From Trypethelium eluteriae (lineage: Eukaryota), in assembly GCA_051942245.1 (NCBI GenBank), contig JAVECL010000022.1, positions 62,001 through 97,587 on the forward strand: a stretch of 35,587 bases of DNA. Reading direction: 5' to 3'. Within the stretch, counting starts at the first letter, position 1. Each line of letters opens with the position of its first letter. The translations under genes were made by a program, and so were the position numbers. Of the stretch, positions 7,640-31,965 are shown one piece after another. The notes under the pieces are model-generated. The model did not search any database. It was not told where the DNA came from and saw nothing but the letters and a program-made list of their open reading frames with translations.

Positions 7640-9223
7640 CTATTGATGCCCATGCTTCCCATAGCCAGCATCCAGAAGCTGTTGTTGGATTCTCGCATCT
7701 GCGGATAATGGATGGTGAGATGTGCTGCTGGAACCCTCATCGGGTGCGTGATGCTCAAGATTTGAAGCATAGAGTAGGTCCGGCCTTGAACTTGCTCCGT
7801 TATCGAAGGATAAGCTATGTGAAGCCTGCTGTTCCTTTTCCTGCGGTTGATATTGCGTGGTAGACGGAGAAGACTGATGATAGTCGTAGTGCTCAATCCC
7901 TTCCATAATTCGGGGATCGACAGGCATCTCATAATTCTGAGCACGAGACATATTCGCCATTGGCGCTCGATATTGCTGATTTTCGTTTGCCTGGATAATA
8001 GGTGATAACTGGTCGGCATGATCTTGGAGGACGGTAGTGTCGTCTGCTCCTTGCTTGGGTCCCAAGGTATTTGGCGTTTCGAGTTGTGTTTCACCACGCA
8101 TTGCAGCTGCTCGAGCAACCTGAGTTTTACAATCGTGACAATTTCGAATGACTTGATTGGCAGTCTCCTTGATTCGAACCCAATGATATTTCTCGGCGAT
8201 GACAGCAGTAGTCTTATTGATACCGGCATGGTGTTCGCAATGGATCTTGCGAGCAATTTCATACTGCTTTTGAGGTTCTGAGATGACCTCCTTTCCCTTA
8301 AGCATTAGTCGCTCTGGCTCTTCGTTTGTCTCTGGTATGAGCTTGTAATGTGTAGCAGCGCTCCGAAGCCGACTTTTCTCTGCGCGATCTGCTCCGTCCG
8401 GGTATTTGCCATGTTTTAGATAATACCGAATTTTATCGAATCGCTCCTCAGACACGTATTCTTCACTGTCGGGACCAAGATCACGACCGTAGACTATCGC
8501 GTCGACGAGTTCGTCTGGGTACGACCGGAGGGCACCGGCGCCTTTGACCCGGCCAATGCGTTTGAATCCCAGCGCATCCCATATTCGGAGCGAGGCGACA
8601 TTTGTCTCATAGACAAGATTGAAGACAGAATATGCATACCCCTAGGAAGTTAGTACAAAGCAGAGTGTATTTCCAAGGCAACGTTTGGGCCATACCAGCC
8701 TGGGAGCCCAATCCAGATAAATCTCCCCCATCAATCTACCAACACCTCGATTTCGGGCTGCATCTGTGACCAAGAACCCACCATTGCAGACATGACTTGA
8801 CCTCCCAGGATAGTTGGGTTTGATGTAGAAGCTACCTAGACATTGCTTTTCCCAATCAGAGCCATTCAACTCCATCTGTCGAACTTCTTCCCTATCTTTG
8901 ATCTCGCCTAACAGCATCACGGCACCAAAATTGGCGAACCAATAAGGACCGAAGGTTTCCAACGGCAATGGATCCAGCATTGGGTAGGTATCTCCCTTTT
9001 CGATTTCACGATTCAATAGGGCGCCAAGATAGGACAGAAGTGCAGGAGGCACCTGATCGGGAGAGGAGAAGGGCATCAGGGTAGCAGCTGTGACACGGTC
9101 TCTTAATGTGACCTGACGAGGCGTAATTTCTGGAGGCAGCTCCCCGTACAGCGCTGGGAACGGCGGAACTCCAGAGCGGCGAGAAACCAGCCTCGCAGTC
9201 GGATCATCTAGCATTGCAGGCAT
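7640..9223 (-). CDS. SPT10: Spt10-like GNAT histone acetyltransferase with C-terminal H2C2 zinc-binding domain (~509 aa). Exons 9223-8696, 8641-7640
   Basis: GNAT motif CLGSFYIKPNYPGRSSHVCNGGFLV...RNRGVGRLMG...APRL|GYAYSVFNLVYETN joined across a GTATGG..CCTAG intron. C-terminal IHCEHHAGINKTTAVIAEKYHWVRIKETANQVIRNCHDCK. Confidence 0.9.
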
Positions 9224-11296: not shown

Positions 11297-13695
11297 ATGG
11301 AGGCCGCATCAGCACGTATGGCTGCAAGAGACCGGTTCAGCGGTTTCAACGAGCCTTCACTTACTCCTTTACAACGATATATCCGTAGGTATCACTAGAT
11401 GCACAAACGTAGTTCCCATCTGAATTGAGAGGTGGCTCATTGAAGCGTTATAGAAAATGCCTGCGATCCGACCAACTTCGAACCTAATCTTGCGCTGAAC
11501 CTGGAGATTACGGATCTTATCAATTCGAAAAAGGGTAATGCGTAAGGACTAAGGATCGTTGAATTGTGAATGTGACTACAGCTAATGAATCTGTAGGCCT
11601 CGAGAAGCAGCTGTTGCCATCGTCAATCTGATCAACAGCCGCAATCCAAATGTCTCTATGCTGGCTTTAACTGTAGGACGCAACCTCTCTTCCCCTCTAC
11701 TATACAAAGTTGACATGTATTCAGCTTCTAGACATCTGTGTCAAAAACTGTGGTTACCCTTTTCATCTTCAGATCAGCACGAAAGAATTCCTAAACGAGC
11801 TTGTGCGACGATTTCCAGAGAGACCACCAATCCGCGCAACAAGAGCACAAACCAAGATCCTCGAATTGATAGAAGAATGGCGGCAAACCATATGTCAGAC
11901 CTCAAAATACAAGGAAGATCTGGGTTTCATTAGGGACATGCATCGCTTGCTGAGCTACAAAGGATATATGTTTCCAGAAGTTCGGGCTGATGATGCAGCG
12001 GTCTTGAATCCCAGCGATGTATGTTGGATATGTCACCAGTGGGTCAAATATCTAACGTCCCGCAGAACCTCCGATCCGCCGAAGAGATGGAGGAGGAGGA
12101 GCGAGCCGCGCAGTCTGCGAAGCTACAGGAACTGATACGGCGAGGCTCTCCGCATGACCTGCAAGAGGCCAATAAACTGATGAAAGTAATGGCTGGCTAC
12201 GATAATAGACACAAGACAGACTACAGAGCAAAAGCTGCCGAAGAAGTTCTCAAGATCCAGGAAAAGGCCAGATTGCTCGAGGACATGCTACAAGGACATA
12301 ACGCAGGAGAAGAGATAAAGGAAGGAGACGTCTATGAAGAGCTCGTAAATGCGCTAGCAAGTGCCCATCCGAAGATTCAAAAGATGTGCGAAGAGGAATC
12401 GGACGACACAGAGGCAGTCGCTAAGTTATTTGAGATAAACGACAGTATTCACCGGACGATAGAACGATACAAGCTTGTCAAGAAGGGTGACCTCGAAGCC
12501 GCATCAAAGATACCAAAAGGTACGCTGGGTACGAGTGGTGCTGGTGTGACCAAGGGACCCGACAACGAACTATCTTTGATCGATCTCGGTGGCCCTGAAG
12601 ATGCAGAACTTCCGACAGGCCAAGCTTCGTCTTCGCAGGCATCAGGGGCGCCTCAATCTAAGGGTAATGCATTAGAAGATGACCTTCTTGGCCTATCGCT
12701 CCAGGATAATACCTTTGGACAGGGTGGAGGTATTTCATTGGGATCCAGCGACGGACTTGGTCAGTACACGCTCCTGCTCGTCCGTCCATCGAGACTGACA
12801 TGAATTGCAGGAAACTCAGGCTTGCCACAGCCAGCTCAATCTACGCAACCTACCATCTCGTCGATGAATCAAAGCAATCTATCTCAGCAAGTCGCTCCAT
12901 CACAACCTTCTACGCAGACCAAGCCCAACTATGACCCTTTCGGACCGATAAGCAATGCCCAAACGACATCTAAACCGGCAACCCCTACTCCCTCTCTTGG
13001 CTCTCCGCCCCCCCAACATCAAGCACAACAGACTCGAATCGACCCATTTGCTTCACTGAACGCGCCTGCTCCACGGCAAGCGTCGCCGTTTCAGTTCCAG
13101 CAATCAATCCAACAACCCTCATCACAGCCTTCCTCATTGCTCGATCTCACCACCTCCAACGCTTCTCAGACACTGCCAGTGGTATCTACACCTGATCAAC
13201 AGAGTAACGGCGCTGCTACGTCAGCCGACGACGAGTGGACTTTCTCCTCTGCCCTACCTGACTCATCACACGATCTAACAGTAGTGCACTCAAGCATCCA
13301 CGTCTTGTTCCACATCTCTCGTCAGCCTGGGCCCGACAACGTCATTTTAATACAATCTCGGATCTCCAACAATACGGCGCAGCCAATTTCCCAGCTCGCC
13401 TTTCAGCTTGCCGTTACAAAGGTACGTCAATTGAACAGGGAATTTGTCGTGTCCTTGTGCTGCTTTGCCTGCTTGCTCATCCTCTTACTTCCAGGGCTAC
13501 CAACTTAAGCTCGAACCTCAGTCTGGGCGTGCTCTGGGTCCGCATCAACAACATGGAATTACGCAGACCATCCGGTTGCACGGCGTCGGGCCGGGTCAAG
13601 GCAGCTCAGTTAAGATGCGGTGGAAAGCATCGTATGATGTAGGGACGGAGCACAAGGAAGAAATGGGTGATATTTCGGCGTTGGGCGTATCGTGA
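11297..13695 (+). CDS. GGA2: GGA-family clathrin adaptor (VHS-GAT-hinge-GAE), multi-exon
   Basis: VHS: ENACDPTNFEPNLALNLEITDLINSKKG, LLDICVKNCGYPFHLQISTKEFLNELVRRFPERPP. GAT: QSAKLQELIRRGSPHDLQEANKLMKVMAG. Q/S/P-rich hinge. Gamma-ear: FQLAVTK|GYQLKLEPQSG...VKMRWKASY. ATG at 11297, stop at 13693-13695. Confidence 0.92.
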
Positions 13696-14363: not shown

Positions 14364-16851
14364 CTAGCGTGTAATGATCATTCCGAATCCATCGACCCAT
14401 TGGCCACAGGTGCCGTAGACCCCGGCAATACTATAGCCTCGTGGTGGTATCAGAGTATGGCTAGGACAAATTCAGTCAGCATTAAGGTCTTACGAGGGGT
14501 TGAGGAAACGGTTTGGAGGACGTACCCAGATCCACCAGTAGCATTTCCATAGATTTCGCTCTTCCTTCCCAGGCTTGTCAGAATTTGTAGACCATCAATC
14601 CATACGCCAGCCCTTAGGTAGAACCCCATTAGAATTTCGCCTCTCCGTGTATCTAAGGCGAATTCACTTCCACCAGGTTTGCCGCCGCGCTTCCCAAATA
14701 GTTGCGTAGTAGAGTCCTCATAGATGAACTCGACTCCATCAAGACAAAAGCCACTATAGACTCGGACTGCTCTGAGAAGTTTCGTTTGCTGAAAGGCAGA
14801 TTGAAGAAGGATCTCTTGCGCTTGTGTGCCGTCCTGCTGGGAGAAGCCGAGCTTGCCACCTCGGAATCCTGCTCGGCCGTCAGGAAGCTTGACACGAGAA
14901 GCCTTTGAGGCGAGTTGATTGAAGTCTTCTACGGTGTGTTTGCCTCCGCCGGCAGAAAAGATGTCAATCTTCAATTTCTTATTCCGGCTCTTTTCAGGGA
15001 GTCGTGAACGGAGTTCGCCTTCAATAAGACTGACTTGGCGGGGAGGTCCATTCGACGAGCCGGGCTCCATGTACTCGATCCACGCATGACAGACATCGTC
15101 CCCTTCAGCGAATAGCTCAATGAAGGGAATGCCACTCGAAGCAGTCGCAAGCACATTTCCGACATCCACCGTCCAGACTTGAACACTTCCATCTTGGTTT
15201 GGAGATGGATCGGTCGGTAATCGGAAACATGGGTGAAAACGGAAGCGGAGAGTATCGAGTCTGTGCCAGGTACATTCATCTTTCGGTAGGCACAAACGCT
15301 GGCCAGGGGATTTGGTGCGAGTGGCAAACGCTTCCCTCGCTACAAATGTTCGGTTAAGTTTTATATAATCTCGGAGCATGACTCCAGACTCTTGATGAGG
15401 ACAACCGAGAAGATGGCCAGTTTCATGTAAGTGTGCTCCGATACCGATATTGGCGGCTTCCCAATTACTTCCCGACTCATTCAGGTCATTGGCAACGAAG
15501 TTCGTATCAGTTCGCGTACAATCCATGAAGGCCGGCACCACTTCTTCAATACTAGCTGGATAGCTTTGGAGGGCATGGGATCCGAAGACTGCAAGCTGCA
15601 GATCATCGCTTCCACCACCCAGCGCAGCGTGCCCGCGCACAGTCTTGTACTGTGAATCCCAATGAGTATCGAGATACATGCACGAAACGTACTGTTTTTG
15701 ACCCGGCCTTGGCGCAAAGTAAGCCCGAACAGCGTCCATTGCCCAGCTGTAGAGATCACCTTTTCTCTTCGCCGGCTCGTACTGTTGTGCCACCTCCAAG
15801 TCACGAATTTCTTGCAGGGTCTTTTCCATCCTAATGATGTGAATCTTAGCCTCGTTGCGCATTTGGTTGGTTTCCGTATCGCGGTAAGTAAGTGTGCCTT
15901 GTTGCCATTCCTCTTCGAACCGGAAGCAACGCCTCCCAAAGTTATTGCGATTCATTTGCTCGCCAGTGAAAGCCTGCCAGAGGTAGGCAGACATACGATA
16001 CTTGCGGATTGCAGTCGCCAGCCCGTTCCCTTCCCGCTGTACCCTCTCTGGGACTGCATCGTAGGTTTCTGGTGAATTTCTTGCAAGAAGAATGACAAGG
16101 TGGAGCGGTGGGGAGGCATTGAGAGGAAGGTAATTGATGTTGATCCATGACGAGTGTGCGGGCGAGGAGGTAGGCGGTGCTGCTTTGGCAGGAAGGAAGT
16201 CGAGTCGTAATCGATTGGGTCCCGGCTGTAGATGAACGAGTGTTTTGAAGTGGGAATCGAACACCGGCCAACTGGTCTGCGGGAAACTATCCTGGTGGTG
16301 GCAGACAATTACGTGACCGTCCTGCGGCTGCGTAACGTCGCCAATTTGACCATAGATCAGGAATACTTTTTGATGCACCTATGACACATCAATGCAAATA
16401 TCAAGCTATACAGATTCAAGCCACGTACCCAGGAATTGTCTGAAATGGAAACCACGCGAGGGGCCAATGGAGATGTAGCTGCCATGTTTCGTGGCTGACC
16501 GTTGGACACAGGAGATCCCTGGAGAGCAGATTAACCAAGTGCTATTATGTCCTCGTCATGATCTGGACTCACTACGATCGAGTAGCGATTGCTCTTGGAA
16601 CTGACGACGGAAGGTCTTGTTGGGACAGGCGGTGGAGAACCGTTGGTAGCGACTAGATTTGTGGCAGACTTTGAACGCTCGGAGAGGAGGGTGCTGGGCG
16701 GGGTAGAGGAGCCAAGGAAAGAGTTCAGGGTGGAGGAGGATTTATTGGTGCCATTGGAAGATGTGTTTGAAGCGGACCACTTCTCACTGTCGGCTGAAGG
16801 TGGCTTGCGCGTGATAGATTTGCGGCGCAGGTCTTTGAGAAACGAGGGCAT
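14364..16851 (-). CDS. Putative zinc metallopeptidase (YIL108W-like) with C-terminal jacalin-like lectin domain. Exons 16851-16573, 16518-16429, 16378-14526, 14460-14364
   Basis: HExxH zinc motif GAHLHETGHLLGCPH. C-terminal beta-prism-like repeats (RVYSGFCLDGVEF, GFYLRAGVWIDGLQI, AGVYGTCGQWVDGFGMI). Three in-phase introns; Ser-rich N-terminus. Confidence 0.88.
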
Positions 16852-21249: not shown

Positions 21250-23268
21250 ATGCAAAGAGCTCCAAGTGTTATTATTATCGGGGCTGGTAACGATACGCCA
21301 AACAATGTCCACGAGTTGACTCCTGTTAGCTAATGATGAAAACTCTTTAGGCCCCAGTGCAATAGCCATGGCATATAAACTAAAGCATGAGCTCTTTTTC
21401 GACAACTGGATACTCTACGAGAAGAGCGAGGGACCTGGGGGTACATGGCGGACGAATACTTATCGTATGGTCTCATCTATCACATTTCTTCGATTGCTAG
21501 CTGACGTAGAGAGATAGCTGGAGTGGGATGTGATGTACCGACCCAGTATTTTCGCGTGCCATAATACTTTCGACTCCTTCCTGATTCTTATTCACTAGTC
21601 TTTATTCCTTCAGCTTCGATCTCAATCCCGATTGGTCCAAGGAGCTATGTGACGGACCGGAAATCCTCTCGTATATGGAAAGGACGTGCGATAGATGGAA
21701 CCTGTCACAGCACATGCTGTTCAGCATCGAATGTTTGGGTGCACGTTGGCTGAAGGACGAGCAGGAGTGGGAAATCCAGTTCCGAGACTTGAAGACGTCC
21801 GTCGAATTTGTGCGGAGGGCCACAGTATTAATCAGCGCGGTGGGAGGAATCAATAAGCCACGGGAAGTAAAATTTGAGGGTATGAGTAATTTCCGGGGAC
21901 ACATGTTCCATACGGCCAGATGGGACCACAGTGTTGACTACACTGGAAAGACGATGGCTGTCATTGGTAACGGATGTAGCGCTGGTATGTGGTAAATGGA
22001 TCGATTCACAAAGTCCTGAAGACTGACGAGGGTTATGCTATCAGCTCAAGTTGTGCCAACTGTTTCTAAAACAGCTGCAACCGTTAAGCAGTACGCAAGG
22101 TCTCCTCAATGGTACCATGAGCGACCAAATCGCCCATTCACGGCGTTCGAAAAGTGGTGCTTCAGATGGATTCCACTTTGGGCACGTTGGGAGCGATTGA
22201 AGTTGTTCTTGGAAAACGATGCCTTGGTAGAGACGTACATGCCAGGACCTTTGGCAGCGAAGAAGCGAACAGTAAACAGACTCCCACCTTTTCATTGGCC
22301 ACATTTACTGATTGGAGTGTCTTAGATGGTAGAGGAAAACGCTAAGAAATACATTCACAGCATGGTCCCAGAGAAGTATCGTGACTTTATCGTGCCTGAT
22401 TTTCCACTCGGCTGTAAGCGTCGCATCTTTGATCCTGGGTATTTAGAATCTCTTAACGCGCCGAACGTGGAATTGATACCAGAAGGGATTAAGGAGATCA
22501 CTGAAGATGGTGTCATTAGCGAGAACGGGTCGAAAGATGAATTCGACATAATCATTCTTGCCACTGGATTTCAAGTGCAGAATTTCCTGACCCCGATGGA
22601 CATTGTCGGAGAGCATGGTGTGTCATTACGGCAACGTTGGAAAGAGAACAGAGCTGCACAAGCGTATCTCGGGACCACGGTCTCTGGTTTCCCAAATTTT
22701 GGTATCCTGTAAGTTTCGAATGGAACAAATATGAAATGATCAGGTGCTGACAAGATCAAGATTTGGGCCGAACACATTTCCCGCACACAATTCGGCGTTG
22801 TACAGTTGCGAAGTGCAAGTCGAATATTTTGCGCGTACCATCCTAGCTCCCATCATTGACCGCCAAGTCAAGGCCTTGGTTGTCCACGAAGCGGCCGAGA
22901 CCTTCTGGGTCAATTCAGTGCAGAAGGAGTTGGTAGGATCAGTGTTCGAAGCAGGCTGCTCCAATTGGTATATCACCGAGGGAACGGGCCGCAATGCTGC
23001 CTCATTTCCGGGTTATGCTCGTGATCTGTGGAAGCAGACATGGTTGGCCAAGAGTAGCGACTATGACATTGTGCCTGGTGATAGGCTGTGGCCTGTTCGG
23101 AGACTGTACAGATGGCTCAAACTGTTGATGTGGAGGAAAAGCAATACTGCGCTTTGGATTGTATTTTTCGCTCTTTTGTTACGGAGGAGTCAAATCCGTC
23201 GACGGTTAGGAGTCGTCTACCGCGTTGCTTTGCAAGAATTAAGTCGGCGAAGACCGCGCATCGGATGA
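21250..23268 (+). CDS. FAD/NADPH-dependent Baeyer-Villiger-type monooxygenase (FMO-like), multi-exon, including a 28-nt exon at 21518-21545
   Basis: [31 protein letters not shown], BVMO fingerprint FRGHMFHTARWD, AVIGNGCSA, GCKR, IILATGF, FPNFGIL-FGPN. Confidence 0.9.
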
Positions 23269-25455: not shown

Positions 25456-28400
25456 CTAGTCTTTTATGGAAGGCTCGAAACAATTCCATGCGTGATTGTT
25501 CTGTAGGTGACTGAAGAAAGGCCTACACATAAAACAATAATCAAAGTCTGAACACGTGCGACAGTGGAAACGCGGTCCGCAGATATCCTACGTAATATGA
25601 GTTGCGTTCAGGTTTTGCCAAGCTATGCACTCACATGAAAGCAGCAATTGCACCAATAACCTTCGTGGCGTTTACCATGGACTCGCATAGTATCTTCGCC
25701 AGTGTCTAGTAGAGACATAGAATGTTCGAAAAGCTCTTTGAGCATCTCCCCCTTTCCATGGAAGATAGCGACAGAAATAGAGCTCCAGTGGCCTGCTGGC
25801 CTGGAAACGGCAACATTGGTACTGTGGACGCCTTTCTCAATCAGTTTCTCTACGAGATGGGGATTTCCCTTTCTACAGGCCCAGTGAATAGGGGTCCAAT
25901 ATTCGCTCTGCGTGCGGGAGACACGATCCATATCTAGTACCGCGTTGAGAATCTCCAATGAACCTCCAGACGAAGCATAATGTAAAAGGTTTTCTCCCTT
26001 TAAGTCGGTCATTGCAGGATCAATGCCTAGACGGAGGAGATACTGGAAGGCGTTGAAATGCCCGCCTCTGGCGGCAAGATGAAGAGGCGTTCGACCGTGC
26101 CGTTCAATTAGAAGTGGGGCTTCATAGTTATGATCGTAGATTAAGCGCAATAGATCCGTATGACCCTTGAAGGCAATGAGGTGCAGGGAGGAACCATAGC
26201 GACAGTCAAGAGATCTTAGATGAGAACCAGCGTCCAGAAGGAGCTTCACGACTCCGATAGAGCCGCTGGCACAGGCCGCCCCAAGTGCGTTCGTAAAGGG
26301 TCCGCCCTGCGCATCTATGTTGATGCCCTTGTCAAGCAGCAGCCTCACAATTGGCTCGTAGCCTTTCTCGGAAGCTGCTATCAGCGCATTATCAGAGAAT
26401 TCATCCCGTGCATTAACGTCAGCGCCCTTATCAAGCAGCAACCTTACAATCTGCCCATGGCCTTTCAAGGAAGCTGCTATAAGCGCATTACCAGAGAATT
26501 TATCCTGTGCATTAACATCGGCGCCCTTGTCAAGCAGCAACCTCACAATCTGCTCGTGTCCCTCTAATGCAGCTTCCTCAAGGGCGTTACCATAGTCCCC
26601 ACCCTGTGAATTAACGTCGGCGCCCTTATTGAGTAGTAGCTTCACCATCTCGTAATACCCATGCTTTGCCGCAAGGTATAGTGGAGTCTGACCGTGGCTA
26701 TCCTTACTGGCAAGTGCGGTCGCTCCCTCGTGAATTTGTCGTGCCAGTATCTTCTCTGATGTGAGACATAACCCAAATCTGGCAATTAGATGCAGACCTG
26801 TCGTGTTCTTGGCATAATCCTGGCTGTAGCCCTTGTATTTGTAAGCTGAAGGCCGCAATGCCTGTGTAGCACATGAAACTAATCCTTCATGGAGGAGAAA
26901 TGAACAAATCTGCTCACACACCCCATCTTCAACTGTTATTGCATGCTCTCCCCAGTGCTTGGCAGCATAGTCTAGGAATTGGTTTTGCCGAAGCCTTTCT
27001 TCAAACTCTTCGTCAGTGGCACTACTACCAGATTTGAAAGCATCAAAGCATAGGTAGGTAAGCCACGTTGACGTGATTTCAAGCAGAGCACTAGGGTTCC
27101 ATTGTTCCATAATGCGTTCAAAGTATTCCTGTGTCGTGCAGTGCACAAGACGGACTATAGCACTCTCCGGGTCGATCACAACAAGGCCGGCGCATACTGA
27201 TACCAAGTCTTCAATGTCAGGTACATTGTCTGGGTCAAGTTCCACATCTTCTGGCTCTACTGCTAAAGCACAGCATAGCTCAGCCGTAGTTGGGGGCCTC
27301 TTCGCGTAAGTAATCCAAGAGAGGACCTTCTTTGCTTGTTCCAGGTCGCCACTCAGCTGACCTTCTATCCTTTGAATAGCCTCTCTATATGCATCATCGA
27401 GTGTGACCGAGCCTTTGGAGAGCCTTGTTACAGTTGACTTCACATCTTTTGGTGTTCTCTTATCCAGGAGCGAGTCTGTATATAGGCGGGCGAGAAGGAA
27501 CCTAAGAACCAGTAAGCCTATTCCAACTTCCAGCAAGCAGAGATCAAAGCTTACATGCCGTTTACTGCCTCTGTTATCTCTTCTTGCACCATCTTTTGTA
27601 AAGCAGCGTCACGCCGAATGCATCTTGGCAGCCTGTAAACCTGACCAGCTATAAACCTCTTCACGTCCTCGTCCCTTGCCCGTATCTCTAGGGTTAGCAC
27701 TAATTCAAAGTCATTGCTAATGTCCGGAATGATACGCGAGGTGATCATTAGGCGTAAATCTGTCTCAGCTTGCAGGTCCATAACTTTGGCTAGAAAGAAG
27801 CGACGAGTGCCATCATTGTCGCGACACTCATCTACAGCATCGATTACGACGTACACAGAACAGAACGTTGCAAGTACGTATCTTAGAGCCGCAAAGATCT
27901 CGTCAAATGATGGCCTCGTCCCCCGATGGGCATGCTGCACGTACAACCGTTCCACAGGCTCCTTAAGCGAAGACCGGCTCTGTATCAGCTGCTTGGGAAT
28001 AGCCGCAAGCAGATCAATAGCACTGTGCTCTTCCTGAGTCTTGTAGTTGCAGTATATATAAGCGATTCCGACGGAGTTGCTTTGTACTGTCTTCAATAAG
28101 TGCTCGATTGCGGTGGCTGCTATTATAGTCTTGCCGGCCCCAGGAATACCCGGGCAGAAAAGCGTTCCTTTCGGCTGTCTAAGCCACTGTGCTACCTTGG
28201 AAGTGCTAAGAAACCACTCGCCAGTCCCTTGCTGCCTACGGCTAATGACATCGGATTGTTGCGCGGGATAGTCCGTCGGTCAGATCCATGCCATGAGCTT
28301 GTTATGTTGTGCAAGGTCGGCTTCACGCCGTGTATAGCTAGTGACGTCCTTTATAGCTTCCGTATTACTGCGGGTTACATCTCCGCTCTCTTTTATGGCT

Positions 28401-28878
28401 TGAGATAGTTTACTACATACGTTAGCGACCTTATTAGAATGTAGTCAAACACTGATATCGGAACTAACAAGTGATCCATTTGCAATGCGACCTCTATCAA
28501 TGTCTTCAGGCGCTCCATACGGCTTACTATACTGGCAATCTCCTCTTTCTTGAACCTCCACACTAATGCGTTGCCCGTCTGCCCTATGTTGCCTCTGCCG
28601 GTCATCTTACTTTGCAGCTGCTCTAGCGCTTCCTTGAACTGATCAAGTGGGCCATTCTCAGTTGCAAGGTTCCGGGCTGCAGTATACCACGGAGTACTAG
28701 AGTCCCCTTCCTCGAGGCGGAATCTGAGGGTTGTGAGAAGACTGTAGAGGTTGGCGGCCTCAACCGCACAGATTGCGCGGTCTTTCGAGGTATCTTTGAC
28801 TTCGTTAAGGTACCCGAGAACTCTACTCGAAAGCTGGAGGGTAGCAATAACGCTTGCTGTTATACTGAAAGGGTCCAT
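25456..28878 (-). pseudogene. Fungal NLR-like gene: N-terminal SesA/HeLo-like helical domain + NACHT + ankyrin repeats + ZZ-type zinc finger, with in-frame TGA at 28282-28280. Exons 28878-28469, 28412-27555, 27501-25635, 25587-25456
   Basis: N-terminus MDPFSITASVIATLQL; Walker A CPGIPGAGKT; Walker B VVIDAVDEC; GM|FLLARL; ankyrin repeats; C-terminal WCNCCFH|DICGPRFHCRTCSDFDYCFMC. Exon 2 reads LMAWI*PTDYPAQQSD, where the family usually has WISPxD. Confidence 0.8.
26320..26650 (-). repeat. Tandem 99-bp ankyrin-coding repeats (3-4 near-identical units)
   Basis: The tcaagcagca(a/g)cct(c/t)acaa motif recurs at ~26331, 26430 and 26529, with a more diverged copy at ~26628. Protein unit GHxQIVRLLLDKGADVNAxDxFSxNALIAAS. 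Confidence 0.85.
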
Positions 28879-29431
28879 ATGGAAGGTGGGCGAAGTTTGT
28901 AAAGATGCAAGAGAACATGTCAGAGGAGCTCAACACACAACGAAACATAGGATACGAAAGGCCAATGGGCTGCAAAGAACGGATTGGGGTAACTGCAGCA
29001 GGGCTGAAGAGTTTTGTACACGCGGTTTACTCCGTGCTGTGCCGTGCACCATAGCTATATCAACGACACAGTCGACAGAAGTAGAAGAAACTGAATACGC
29101 AATGATAAAAGCTCGGAGATATTTTAGCCATTAGAGTAAGTTGTAAATACATTGTAAATTGCTCAAAGCACTTCTCCCACAAATTTCAAGGTCTTCTGGC
29201 GAACGTCTCAGGATGTGAAAATTGGAACAGATGCAGAAAAATACAAGCAATGGCACTGGGTCGAAAGAAAATTAAAGAAAAACGGGAGAGCTGACAATTT
29301 ATTACTGGGTGACAGTTTCACTCCGCACAAGCTAAGGAGCGACCAGTGAAAGTCCTTCACGTCTTCAATCCCACTAATATAGGTGGGGATACGTCGCTCG
29401 ATAGTTCCTTCCATATAATTGGTCTGAAAGT

Positions 29432-29449
29432 AAAAAAGAAAACAAAAAA
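29432..29449 (-). terminator. RNA polymerase III oligo-T terminator downstream of tRNA-Met
   Basis: The minus strand reads ATAATTTTTTGTTTTCTTTTTT immediately after the discriminator base. Confidence 0.8.
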
Positions 29450-29489
29450 TTATTGCCCCGTGCAAGGATCGAACTTGCGACCTTCAGAT

Positions 29490-29523
29490 AACTTGAACTC
29501 TTCGAGTCCATCATATGTTCAAA
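29490..29523 (-). other. Canonical 34-nt tRNA intron at position 37/38
   Basis: TTTGAACATATGATGGACTCGAAGAGTTCAAGTT lies one base 3' of the anticodon, contains TATGA complementary to TCATA, and lacks GT-AG ends. Confidence 0.85.
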
Positions 29524-29530
29524 TATGAGA

Positions 29531-29582
29531 CTAAACGATAGAAAGTCAGCGGCTGATTGCATGCAGATGCAACGATGCGTAC
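29531..29582 (-). other. 52-nt spliceosomal-type intron inside the tRNA-Met anticodon stem (between positions 30 and 31)
   Basis: CAG|GTACGCATCG...CCGCTGACTTTCTATCGTTTAG|T: GTRNGY donor, GCTGAC branch site 14 nt before the end, pyrimidine-rich stretch and TAG acceptor. Size matches the mRNA introns in this window. Confidence 0.8.
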
Positions 29583-29640
29583 CTGACGTGATAGCCAACT
29601 ACACCAACGAGGCGATGCAATGATTTAAGATTTTGGTACA

Positions 29641-29650
29641 TAATTATATA
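29641..29650 (-). promoter_or_regulatory. TATA-like element ~30 nt upstream of the tRNA-Met 5' end
   Basis: Minus strand TATATAATTA at about -28 to -37 from 29613. Confidence 0.45.
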
Positions 29651-30534
29651 TTGGTCAATTTAAATAACACCAACATAAGCCTGTTCTCCCTTTAGGTAAT
29701 TAGATTACCTATTACCTACCTTGGTAGGTAGGTGAGTACTAAACTAGGACCGAGCAGGAATAACCCCTTTTCTTAGTACTTCAAGGTTCTTATTAAGGTG
29801 AAGTAGGTCTTGGGGCGAACTGGAACTCTTCTTCGGACTTCCCATGAATTTAGTATGGTCGTGGAAACGCCCATCGCACAAGTTACGCCCGCCTAAGTTA
29901 CTTCGCCCCAATTCTTCCAAGGGTTTCTGGATGAAGGAGGGTGGAGAGGTGGCGGCGGTACGATATGAGGTCTCCGATAAGTGACCAGGTTAACGATAAG
30001 CGAATATGGCTTTCAAAGACAGATCAGTCTGAGCTAACTACTCTACTTGGATAGCAGACTTGCGGATCGAGAGCCGGAGCATGGAAAAACTTCTTGGCGT
30101 TTTCGGAAAGGTGTATATTCAAAACTATAAAAGTAAAGACTGTCATTCACGGCGGATCCAAGAAGCCCCCAACGTCGCTCGTTGCCACTTCGTAACGTCT
30201 TATTGTCCGGAGACTCCAAAGTGAAGATGCTCTCACGTTAGATCAGCTCTGGGAACCAGCTCATGGTGCAATATTATGATTGAAATGGGTAACTGAGTTC
30301 GGAATAATCGCCTCCAGCCATTCTACTTTCCAGCAATGGGACTTACCTTTCCTGATCATCGATCGCTTCCAATCCTGACGTCGTAGTTAATTGAAGTAAT
30401 GTCACTCATGGATTTTTGGCACCACCTGCTCGGATTGTATTCACTAGTGCGCCCCCGAGGCCCTGTTGGGTTCTTCCTGAGCGCTGTAAGAGGAGGTTCG
30501 AGGGAGAAGATGCATTAGCACTCTCAAGCACTAT

Positions 30535-31965
30535 TCAAAGCCCACTCAACTTGATACGGTCCGCGCTCTCACATTGAAGAAAACCATCTCTATCGCATTC
30601 CGGAGGCCACTTCTCCTTAGTAACCCCGTAACTCCCATTCTTCGATTTACCAAAGTAGAAGCGAGCCACATCACTTGTTGCCACCTTCGTCGCACTAGCG
30701 ACATTACTTTCTCGAACCGCTTGGGCCATCCACTCAAAGGTCTCACCAGGAGTGAAGCGCATGATCCATTCGACATCGTTCTGATCCACATCCTTACTCA
30801 AAATCCTGAGTCTGATCGTCATACCCACCCAGTATAAGAACAAAGACTTCACAAGCAGTACCACAATTCCGGCGAGCAACAGGAGCTCCCAAAGGATCCA
30901 CGTTCGTGTCGTGATACAGCCCTGTGACTGCGTTGACATGCTGGAGTTCAACAAATAGTTGTTTCCGCTTGCCACCATGATCATGGAATTTAATATTTGC
31001 TCTAGCACACTTCCGGCGTCTGGAGAAGCGGGCGAGCCCGTTCCGCTGTAGAGTGAGCCTTGGAATGTCTGCTTCCAATCTTGAAGGGTCGCGAAGGAGT
31101 CGATCCCCTTTTGAATGTCCGTGAGCATATCGTAGGTGTCATGTAGAGCGCACTCATAGCTCTGCATTCGTTTCGTGTCATTGCCTTGGGCGGATAAATC
31201 CACAGAAGCTCGAACATTAAACGTTGTGTCGATAGTCTGACCAGCCGAAGTCTCCAGAATAACAAGGTGGCTAAATGTACCGTCTTGGTTCGCATTGGCA
31301 ACAGAGACAGGAGTACTATAAAGCATATTGTGTTGCACAGTGTCGGAGACAACATCATCCGAAGATGTAGAGAATGGATACTCCAGTACCTGCGGCTTTG
31401 CTGTACAAGTCCACTCCCCGAGAACACCAGCTACATCTGCACTGAATCTTGGATCCCTGTTTACTTTAGCATAGATACCTTGCTTTCCACCATTTTGTAT
31501 GCTCTTGAGCTGTGCTTGTGTCACGACCATGTATGGTGCGCCGTTGGATGTTGGGAGCCCCATGCGATAATCTGAGACGACAAGACCGACTCCAAATGGG
31601 CATCGATCGCGAACGGGAACTGATTGGATAAGGGTAGACACAAAGTCTGCCCCCACACTCAATGCGTAAGTTAGGATCATAATAAGGCCTAACCATCCCC
31701 CGGGAAGGACCTTGAGCGTCTTTAGTGCAATGACTGAATCAAGTCCGGATAACCAGTTCGACATTAGGGGCAATGGGGCATGTTGCCTTCGCATGAGCTT
31801 CAGCTTAGCTTGTGTAGCCAACCACTTTCTGCCAAGAAAGCTAATAGCGATGAACAGGACGACAAAGAGAATACGGAACAATAGTCGGACATGAGTACTG
31901 GGGTAATTAACAAGGAGCTTGGCCGTTGTGATTTCAGTAAGCTGTGAGTACTACCGAGGAAGCAT
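30535..31965 (-). CDS. Hypothetical fungal membrane protein (N-terminal TM helices, Cys-containing lumenal domain, C-terminal TM); 5' end unresolved
   Basis: 448-codon ORF 30535..31881 begins at TTG, with hydrophobic segments LFVVLFIAISFLG, WLGLIMILTYALSVGA and WILWELLLLAGIVVLLV. The nearest upstream in-frame ATG (31965) is followed by TAG at 31953-31951. Confidence 0.65.

Follow-up and report, generated by a model that had tools for sequence, protein, structure and literature searches.

An elongator-type tRNA-Met(CAT) gene of the lichen-forming fungus Trypethelium eluteriae appears to be interrupted by two introns of different classes, a 52-nt GT-AG insert of spliceosomal character in the anticodon stem and a 34-nt intron at the canonical tRNA site, separated by a 7-nt piece that carries the anticodon. 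The gene lies in a window of 35.6 kb, by which we mean the whole stretch of DNA analyzed here. In the pathway that we propose, RNA polymerase III (Pol III) would produce a 160-nt precursor, from which the nuclear spliceosome would take out the 52-nt insert, joining G30 to U31 so that the anticodon stem can form. Only after this removal would the precursor gain the shape that the tRNA endonuclease recognizes, and the endonuclease together with tRNA ligase would then excise the 34-nt intron at position 37/38. We infer from the sequence that the locus is transcribed and that both introns are spliced, as well as the order of splicing and a possible regulatory use, and we regard the account as a whole, that of a working or recently working gene with two intron classes seven bases apart and a spliceosome-first pathway, as evenly balanced between right and wrong.

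Anatomy and identity of the interrupted gene

Five pieces make up the gene, which runs from 29613 to 29454 on the minus strand, as delimited from the sequence and by ARAGORN. The interval 29490-29582, to which an earlier sequence-only reading had drawn attention, coincides exactly with the 52-nt insert, the 7-nt piece, and the 34-nt intron. Its description of an anticodon piece of seven bases flanked by two intron classes is borne out by the sequence, by ARAGORN, and by the intron comparison presented below.

Table 1. Coordinates of the tRNA-Met(CAT) gene and of its associated elements.
Feature	Position	Strand	Details
Elongator-type tRNA-Met(CAT) gene, whole	29454..29613	minus	160 nt; 74 nt without both inserts; ARAGORN on in-silico forms
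Exon 1	29583..29613	minus	31 nt = tRNA positions 1-30, with one additional D-loop base; sequence and ARAGORN
52-nt insert, spliceosomal-type	29531..29582	minus	between tRNA positions 30 and 31
5' site of 52-nt insert, GTACGC	29582-29577	minus	
Branch motif of 52-nt insert, GCTGAC	29550-29545	minus	branch A at 29546
3' TAG of 52-nt insert	29533-29531	minus	
7-nt piece TCTCATA	29524..29530	minus	positions 31-37: U31, C32, U33, anticodon CAU, A37
34-nt intron, canonical 37/38 site	29490..29523	minus	ARAGORN, form without the 52 nt
Exon 3	29454..29489	minus	36 nt = tRNA positions 38-73
A box	29595-29606	minus	in exon 1, intact
B box	29465-29475	minus	in exon 3, intact
T6 run	29444..29449	minus	4 nt past the discriminator
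TATATAAT	29643..29650	minus	-37 to -30 upstream of the gene

Standard searches leave this gene unseen. ARAGORN run without introns reported no tRNA gene anywhere in the window, and no Rfam match across the window reached its gathering score. Within 29300-29800, Rfam matches accepted up to an E value of 10 included no tRNA; the sole match at that level was STnc410, which we consider meaningless. When both inserts were excised by their coordinates, the remaining 74 nt were called by ARAGORN as tRNA-Met(CAT) with a score of 112.4, the best of the four possible forms, and either form with a single insert was also called as tRNA-Met. A tRNA that needs the spliceosome for its maturation would explain why such genes are missed by standard finders, and default ARAGORN and Rfam are both blank here.

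The initiator signature of tRNA-Met includes A54. Read directly off the sequence, the gene has G1:C72, T54, and A73, and by the G1:C72 pair and T54 it is of the elongator and not of the initiator kind; A1:U72 is described as a mark of initiator tRNA in an excerpt of PMC8450103.

The gene has the make-up of a type 2 Pol III gene: it contains both an A box and a B box, an oligo-T terminator follows them, and its 160 nt include no stretch of T4 or longer that could act as an internal terminator. The T6 run on its 3' side is likely to be the Pol III terminator, and the upstream element TATATAAT would be a Pol III TATA element. Measured from the start of one box to the start of the other, the A box and B box are 45 nt apart without the inserts and 131 nt apart with both, in agreement with the lengthened spacing that the sequence-only reading had pointed out. 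Pol III would be expected to tolerate a spacing stretched to this extent.

By protein similarity, the neighboring genes place the window in the Trypetheliaceae, a family of lichen-forming Dothideomycetes. The peptidase ORF shares 96% identity with a protein of Trypethelium subeluteriae and 91% with one of Bathelium mastoideum, and the corresponding values for the GGA ORF are 95% and 88%. One exon of the flavin monooxygenase gene matches a protein of Viridothelium virens with 100% identity, and the other exons of this gene differ from that protein at a few residues. These matches point to V. virens or a species very near to it as the host. The end of the monooxygenase ORF is also matched, at 93% over one third of the query length, by a Trypethelium subeluteriae protein from a metagenome-assembled genome, P0328, in which an aquaporin (MIP) domain is present; in that assembly, two adjoining genes seem to have been merged into one gene model.

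Other features of the window were recorded alongside. About 0.5 kb downstream of the tRNA-Met gene lies an NLR-type gene (25623-28929, minus strand), with the tRNA gene in its upstream region; it encodes an NPHP3_N/NACHT-like N-terminal part, a GPI inositol-deacylase winged-helix domain, and ankyrin repeats. Upstream of the tRNA-Met gene, an ORF of 448-471 codons (30535-31950, minus strand) has no Pfam match. The ORF at 7640-8641 on the minus strand encodes an integrase-type H2C2 zinc finger (PF09337, PF17921) and is probably a retrotransposon relic.

Spliceosomal signals of the 52-nt insert

We compared the insert with the introns that interrupt protein-coding genes of the same window. The reference set comprised 11 introns supported by protein alignment, for which close homologues were mapped; a further candidate in the GGA gene (11709-11772, starting GTTGAC) was left out, as its ends varied with the query protein, and SDR homologues did not contribute to the set. 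At 52 nt, the insert falls within the length range of these local introns (47-73 nt, median 54). Its 5' site, GTACGC, begins with the GTA found in 11 of 11 and has the G at position +5 found in eight. As its branch motif the insert has GCTGAC, whose branch A is 15 nt away from the 3' end. Eight of the 11 local introns have a CTRAY motif at a distance of 10-18 nt from their 3' end; in three of these it reads CTGAC, twice in the form GCTGAC that the insert has, and one reference intron (16379-16428) lacks CTRAY on inspection by eye. The insert ends in TTTAG, and a YAG end is shared by 10 local introns. Its 3' AG is the first AG past the branch A, and the next AGs lie at least 31 nt farther downstream.

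These signals are rare in combination. Under a rule that asks for a GTA start, a CTRAY motif 8-30 nt from the end, and an HAG end, only 4 of the 71,070 segments of 52 nt on both strands of the window fit, the insert itself counted, and it is therefore very unlikely that a random insertion would look like this. The 52-nt insert is very probably spliceosomal in nature, to judge from these signals. Two features of the splice sites count against the main account. The C at position +6 of GTACGC recurs in just 1 of the 11 local introns (T in seven, G in three), and the cut that ARAGORN prefers for the 52 nt is not GT-AG.

The placement of the cut affects the sequence of the product. An AG is found on either flank of the insert, so that three slides of the cut, the GT-AG one among them, yield an identical product, with U31, C32, and a U31-U39 mismatch, an anticodon arm that we take to be that of the yeast elongator tRNA-Met. 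The cut preferred by ARAGORN lies two bases further on and yields a different product, with G31 and U32.

No second copy of the insert occurs in the 35.6-kb window, where the best other match is 11 nt long, and the similarity of the insert to the local introns is found mostly at the ends, where the splice motifs sit (z of 0.7-3.3). Within the window, nothing speaks for an introner-like or repeat origin. A search for the locus of a relative in metagenome contigs, with the three exon anchors, returned seven loci, all of them chance matches and none of them a tRNA according to ARAGORN (0 of 7); contigs of prokaryote genomes, in which fungi are present only as contamination, gave no match to the locus. 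The sequence-only reading had likened the insertion site, CAG|T, to a proto-splice site. The exon side does match, and the CAG ahead of the insert adds complementarity to U1; on the other hand, AG precedes just 1 of the 11 local introns. The base that follows a proto-splice site is usually a purine, and the T found here is not. The argument from a proto-splice site is thus a weak one. The host spliceosome evidently handles very short exon pieces, as the monooxygenase gene contains an exon of 28 nt (21518-21545, plus strand) between two introns of 53 nt.

Two other ways of reading the interruptions do not fit the locus. On the uncut sequence with introns allowed, the only gene that ARAGORN gives is a tRNA-Leu(CAA) with a single 82-nt intron, a reading that we consider almost certainly wrong and have rejected: its intron would sit at 34/35 instead of 37/38, its D stem is wobble-paired, its variable region has only 7 nt, and its score of 102.3 compares with 112.4 for tRNA-Met. 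Leucine tRNAs have a long variable arm. Some algae have multiple non-canonical introns in their tRNA genes. Were the 52-nt insert a tRNA-type intron at an ectopic site, as known from archaea or Cyanidioschyzon, the endonuclease would cut it at a bulge-helix-bulge (BHB) with no part for the spliceosome, and archaeal tRNA genes do contain multiple introns at non-canonical sites (excerpt of the tRNAscan-SE 2.0 paper, PMC8450103). The geometry, however, fails at every boundary tested, as no BHB was present at any of five shifts of the insert, the 4-bp central helix being incomplete at all five (at most three of four pairs) and the flanking helices poor. Under a BHB reading, moreover, the full set of spliceosomal signals would have arisen by chance, with odds of roughly 4 in 71,070, and we rejected it as very improbable. 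In the reading that we prefer, the insert is a spliceosomal intron within a tRNA-Met gene.

Folding of the precursor and the proposed order of splicing

To follow the anticodon stem through the possible precursors, we computed partition-function folds in which the acceptor, D, and T arms were constrained to form, and took the pairs 27-30:40-43 as the read-out. The predicted stem probability was about 0.07 with both inserts kept and 0.001 with the 52 nt kept and the 34 nt out; it was about 0.2 with the 52 nt out and the 34 nt kept, and 0.8-0.9 in the mature form. The low values in the presence of the insert arise from a decoy helix, in which the CUGAC of the branch motif (29545-29549) is complementary to, and predicted to pair with, the exon sequence GUCAG (29583-29587, positions 26-30), with a probability of about 0.83. 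This agrees with the proposal of the sequence-only reading that the insert breaks the anticodon stem; it sits in the 5' strand, between positions 30 and 31. The predicted GUCAG:CUGAC helix would conceal the branch site as well as the exon adjoining the 5' splice site, and it could hinder the binding of U2. The folding argument for the order of splicing is a soft one, because even without the 52 nt the stem probability reaches no more than about 0.2.

In the predicted fold of the 34-nt intron, the anticodon region UCAUAU pairs with AUAUGA of the intron, a second hairpin follows this anticodon-intron helix, and the 3' splice site is single-stranded. C32 and the intron G(-3) are complementary by sequence, so that an A-I pair is possible, and they are unpaired in the minimum-energy fold. 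A strict BHB is absent at this intron, with two of four pairs in the central helix.

That the spliceosome would act first is suggested for both structural and compartmental reasons. The sequence-only reading started from the premise that the endonuclease measures its substrate, and the literature agrees: TSEN54 is described as a molecular ruler (excerpt of PMC10275265), and yeast mutations in the anticodon stem that disturb the exon-intron structure block splicing, so that unspliced pre-tRNA accumulates and decays (excerpt of PMC6913130). As to compartments, the endonuclease of budding and fission yeast is found on the cytoplasmic face of mitochondria, according to PMC10275265. If the endonuclease is cytoplasmic, the nuclear spliceosome would act first, an argument that was absent from the sequence-only reading. 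The spliceosome is a nuclear machine. By analogy, the same location of the endonuclease is likely in this fungus, as the two yeasts bracket the Pezizomycotina. The earlier wording of an obligate order, in which spliceosomal removal must come first, is nonetheless too strong, since endonucleases can cut mini-substrates (PMC10275265, in part) and the stem probability is low after removal of the 52 nt. Provided that both introns are spliced, the spliceosome probably comes first, as a strong preference and not as a necessity.

A gene with these properties might be a disabled copy, in which a spliceosomal intron or an intron-like piece entered one of several tRNA-Met genes, leaving an unspliced Pol III transcript and a young pseudogene. 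The misfolding predicted for the precursor, with an anticodon-stem probability of about 0.07, would fit such a history, as would the A box to B box spacing stretched to 131 nt and the degradation in yeast of pre-tRNAs with anticodon-stem defects (excerpt of PMC6913130). However, none of the exon parts is damaged, the two promoter boxes are intact, as is the terminator, and the insert has a full, correctly spaced set of signals and no run of T4 or longer; this last point speaks weakly, as a young insertion would look alike. We judge a disabled copy to be unlikely, at a level that still calls for serious attention. Further tRNA-Met genes may exist, and the copy described here could be dispensable or dead.

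Alternatively, both introns could be real and their order not fixed, with the endonuclease cutting the 34-nt intron from a precursor that retains the 52 nt, through local recognition of the anticodon-intron pairing, and the spliceosome acting before or after it, for example once retrograde import has taken the tRNA back into the nucleus. tRNAs are able to return to the nucleus. In the predicted fold of the double precursor, the stem's 3' strand and the helix between anticodon and intron are contiguous, and endonucleases of Xenopus, yeast, and human cut mini-substrates (excerpt of PMC10275265). Against this, the 34-nt intron lacks a strict BHB, with only two of four central pairs, which makes cutting independent of the tRNA body unlikely. 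The anticodon stem is predicted to be mostly unformed with the insert in place, anticodon-stem defects block splicing in yeast (PMC6913130, in part), and the endonuclease is cytoplasmic in two yeasts (PMC10275265, in part). An order that is not fixed therefore seems to us quite improbable. Under the spliceosome-first account, the supply of this elongator tRNA-Met would depend on two unrelated splicing machineries that act in a set sequence, first the nuclear spliceosome, which would rebuild the stem, and only then the cytoplasmic endonuclease, with the 7-nt anticodon piece between the two introns; to this fuller proposal, which is tentative, we give somewhat less than even credence.

Comparison with known systems and implications

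The closest parallels to the insert are found in genes for other noncoding RNAs. Spliceosomal introns occur in many fungal U6 genes and also in genes for U1, U2, U5, and rRNA, and the U6 RNA of S. pombe, a Pol III transcript, is spliced (excerpts of PMC5855946). Like the fungal U6 introns (Tani and Ohshima 1989, 1991; Canzler et al. 2016, cited in PMC5855946), the insert is short, has GT-AG ends and a branch site, and interrupts a small structured Pol III RNA; reverse splicing followed by reverse transcription, the origin proposed for the U6 introns in the same excerpt, is common to the comparison. Unlike U6, the host here is a tRNA and no component of the spliceosome, so that closeness to the catalytic center cannot explain the insertion. 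The tRNA-Met gene differs further in having a second intron of another class 7 nt away, and its splicing is proposed from sequence.

The rDNA of lichen fungi also carries spliceosomal introns, one of which is removed by yeast from a Pol I transcript (Bhattacharya et al. 2000, cited in an excerpt of PMC8527467). The insert shares with those introns a lichen mycobiont as host, an ectopic position, a length of about 50-60 nt, and a gene that is not transcribed by Pol II (same excerpt of PMC8527467). It differs from them in that tRNA-Met is a Pol III gene, whereas the rDNA introns lie in Pol I rRNA with no second splicing system on the same helix. Introner-like elements are present in many near-identical copies in a genome; within the 35.6-kb window, the insert stands alone. 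In the same fungal class, the Dothideomycetes, such elements provide a known route of recent intron gain (excerpt of PMC4457414).

Comparison with tRNA introns separates the two interruptions. Red algae and nucleomorphs have tRNA genes with multiple BHB introns. The 34-nt intron resembles the canonical introns of eukaryotic tRNA genes, as outlined in part of PMC10275265, in its position at 37/38 and its pairing with the anticodon region. The 52-nt insert is unlike them, as it lies at 30/31 in the stem, carries spliceosomal signals, and has no BHB or BHL context. Archaeal tRNA genes with multiple BHB introns (excerpt of PMC8450103) likewise have more than one intron and very short exon pieces; there, in contrast, one endonuclease cuts all of the introns at BHBs, and the insert failed the BHB test.

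The review PMC10275265 presents the splicing of pre-tRNA as the work of endonuclease and ligase and contrasts it with the spliceosome. In the excerpt of PMC5855946, the noncoding RNA genes named as having spliceosomal introns are those for U1, U2, U5, U6, and rRNA, and tRNA is not among them. A literature search, whose scope was the literature outside subscription journals, found no published spliceosomal intron in a tRNA gene. Ectopic spliceosomal introns in noncoding RNA genes are already known, and what is new here is the proposed action of two intron classes on one helix. With 7 nt between the two classes on the anticodon arm, it can be measured directly which of the two pathways comes first.

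A spliceosome-dependent tRNA would add a third route of tRNA maturation and would allow substrate measurement by the endonuclease to be tested in a natural setting. It would also bear on the spread of introns by reverse splicing into abundant RNAs. A regulatory coupling of tRNA-Met output to spliceosome activity, which the sequence-only reading had raised, is speculation. If this is the main tRNA-Met gene, the translation capacity of the lichen fungus would be tied to the activity of its spliceosome, and such a coupling, if true, would parallel the growth-slowing role proposed for ectopic introns in lichen rDNA.
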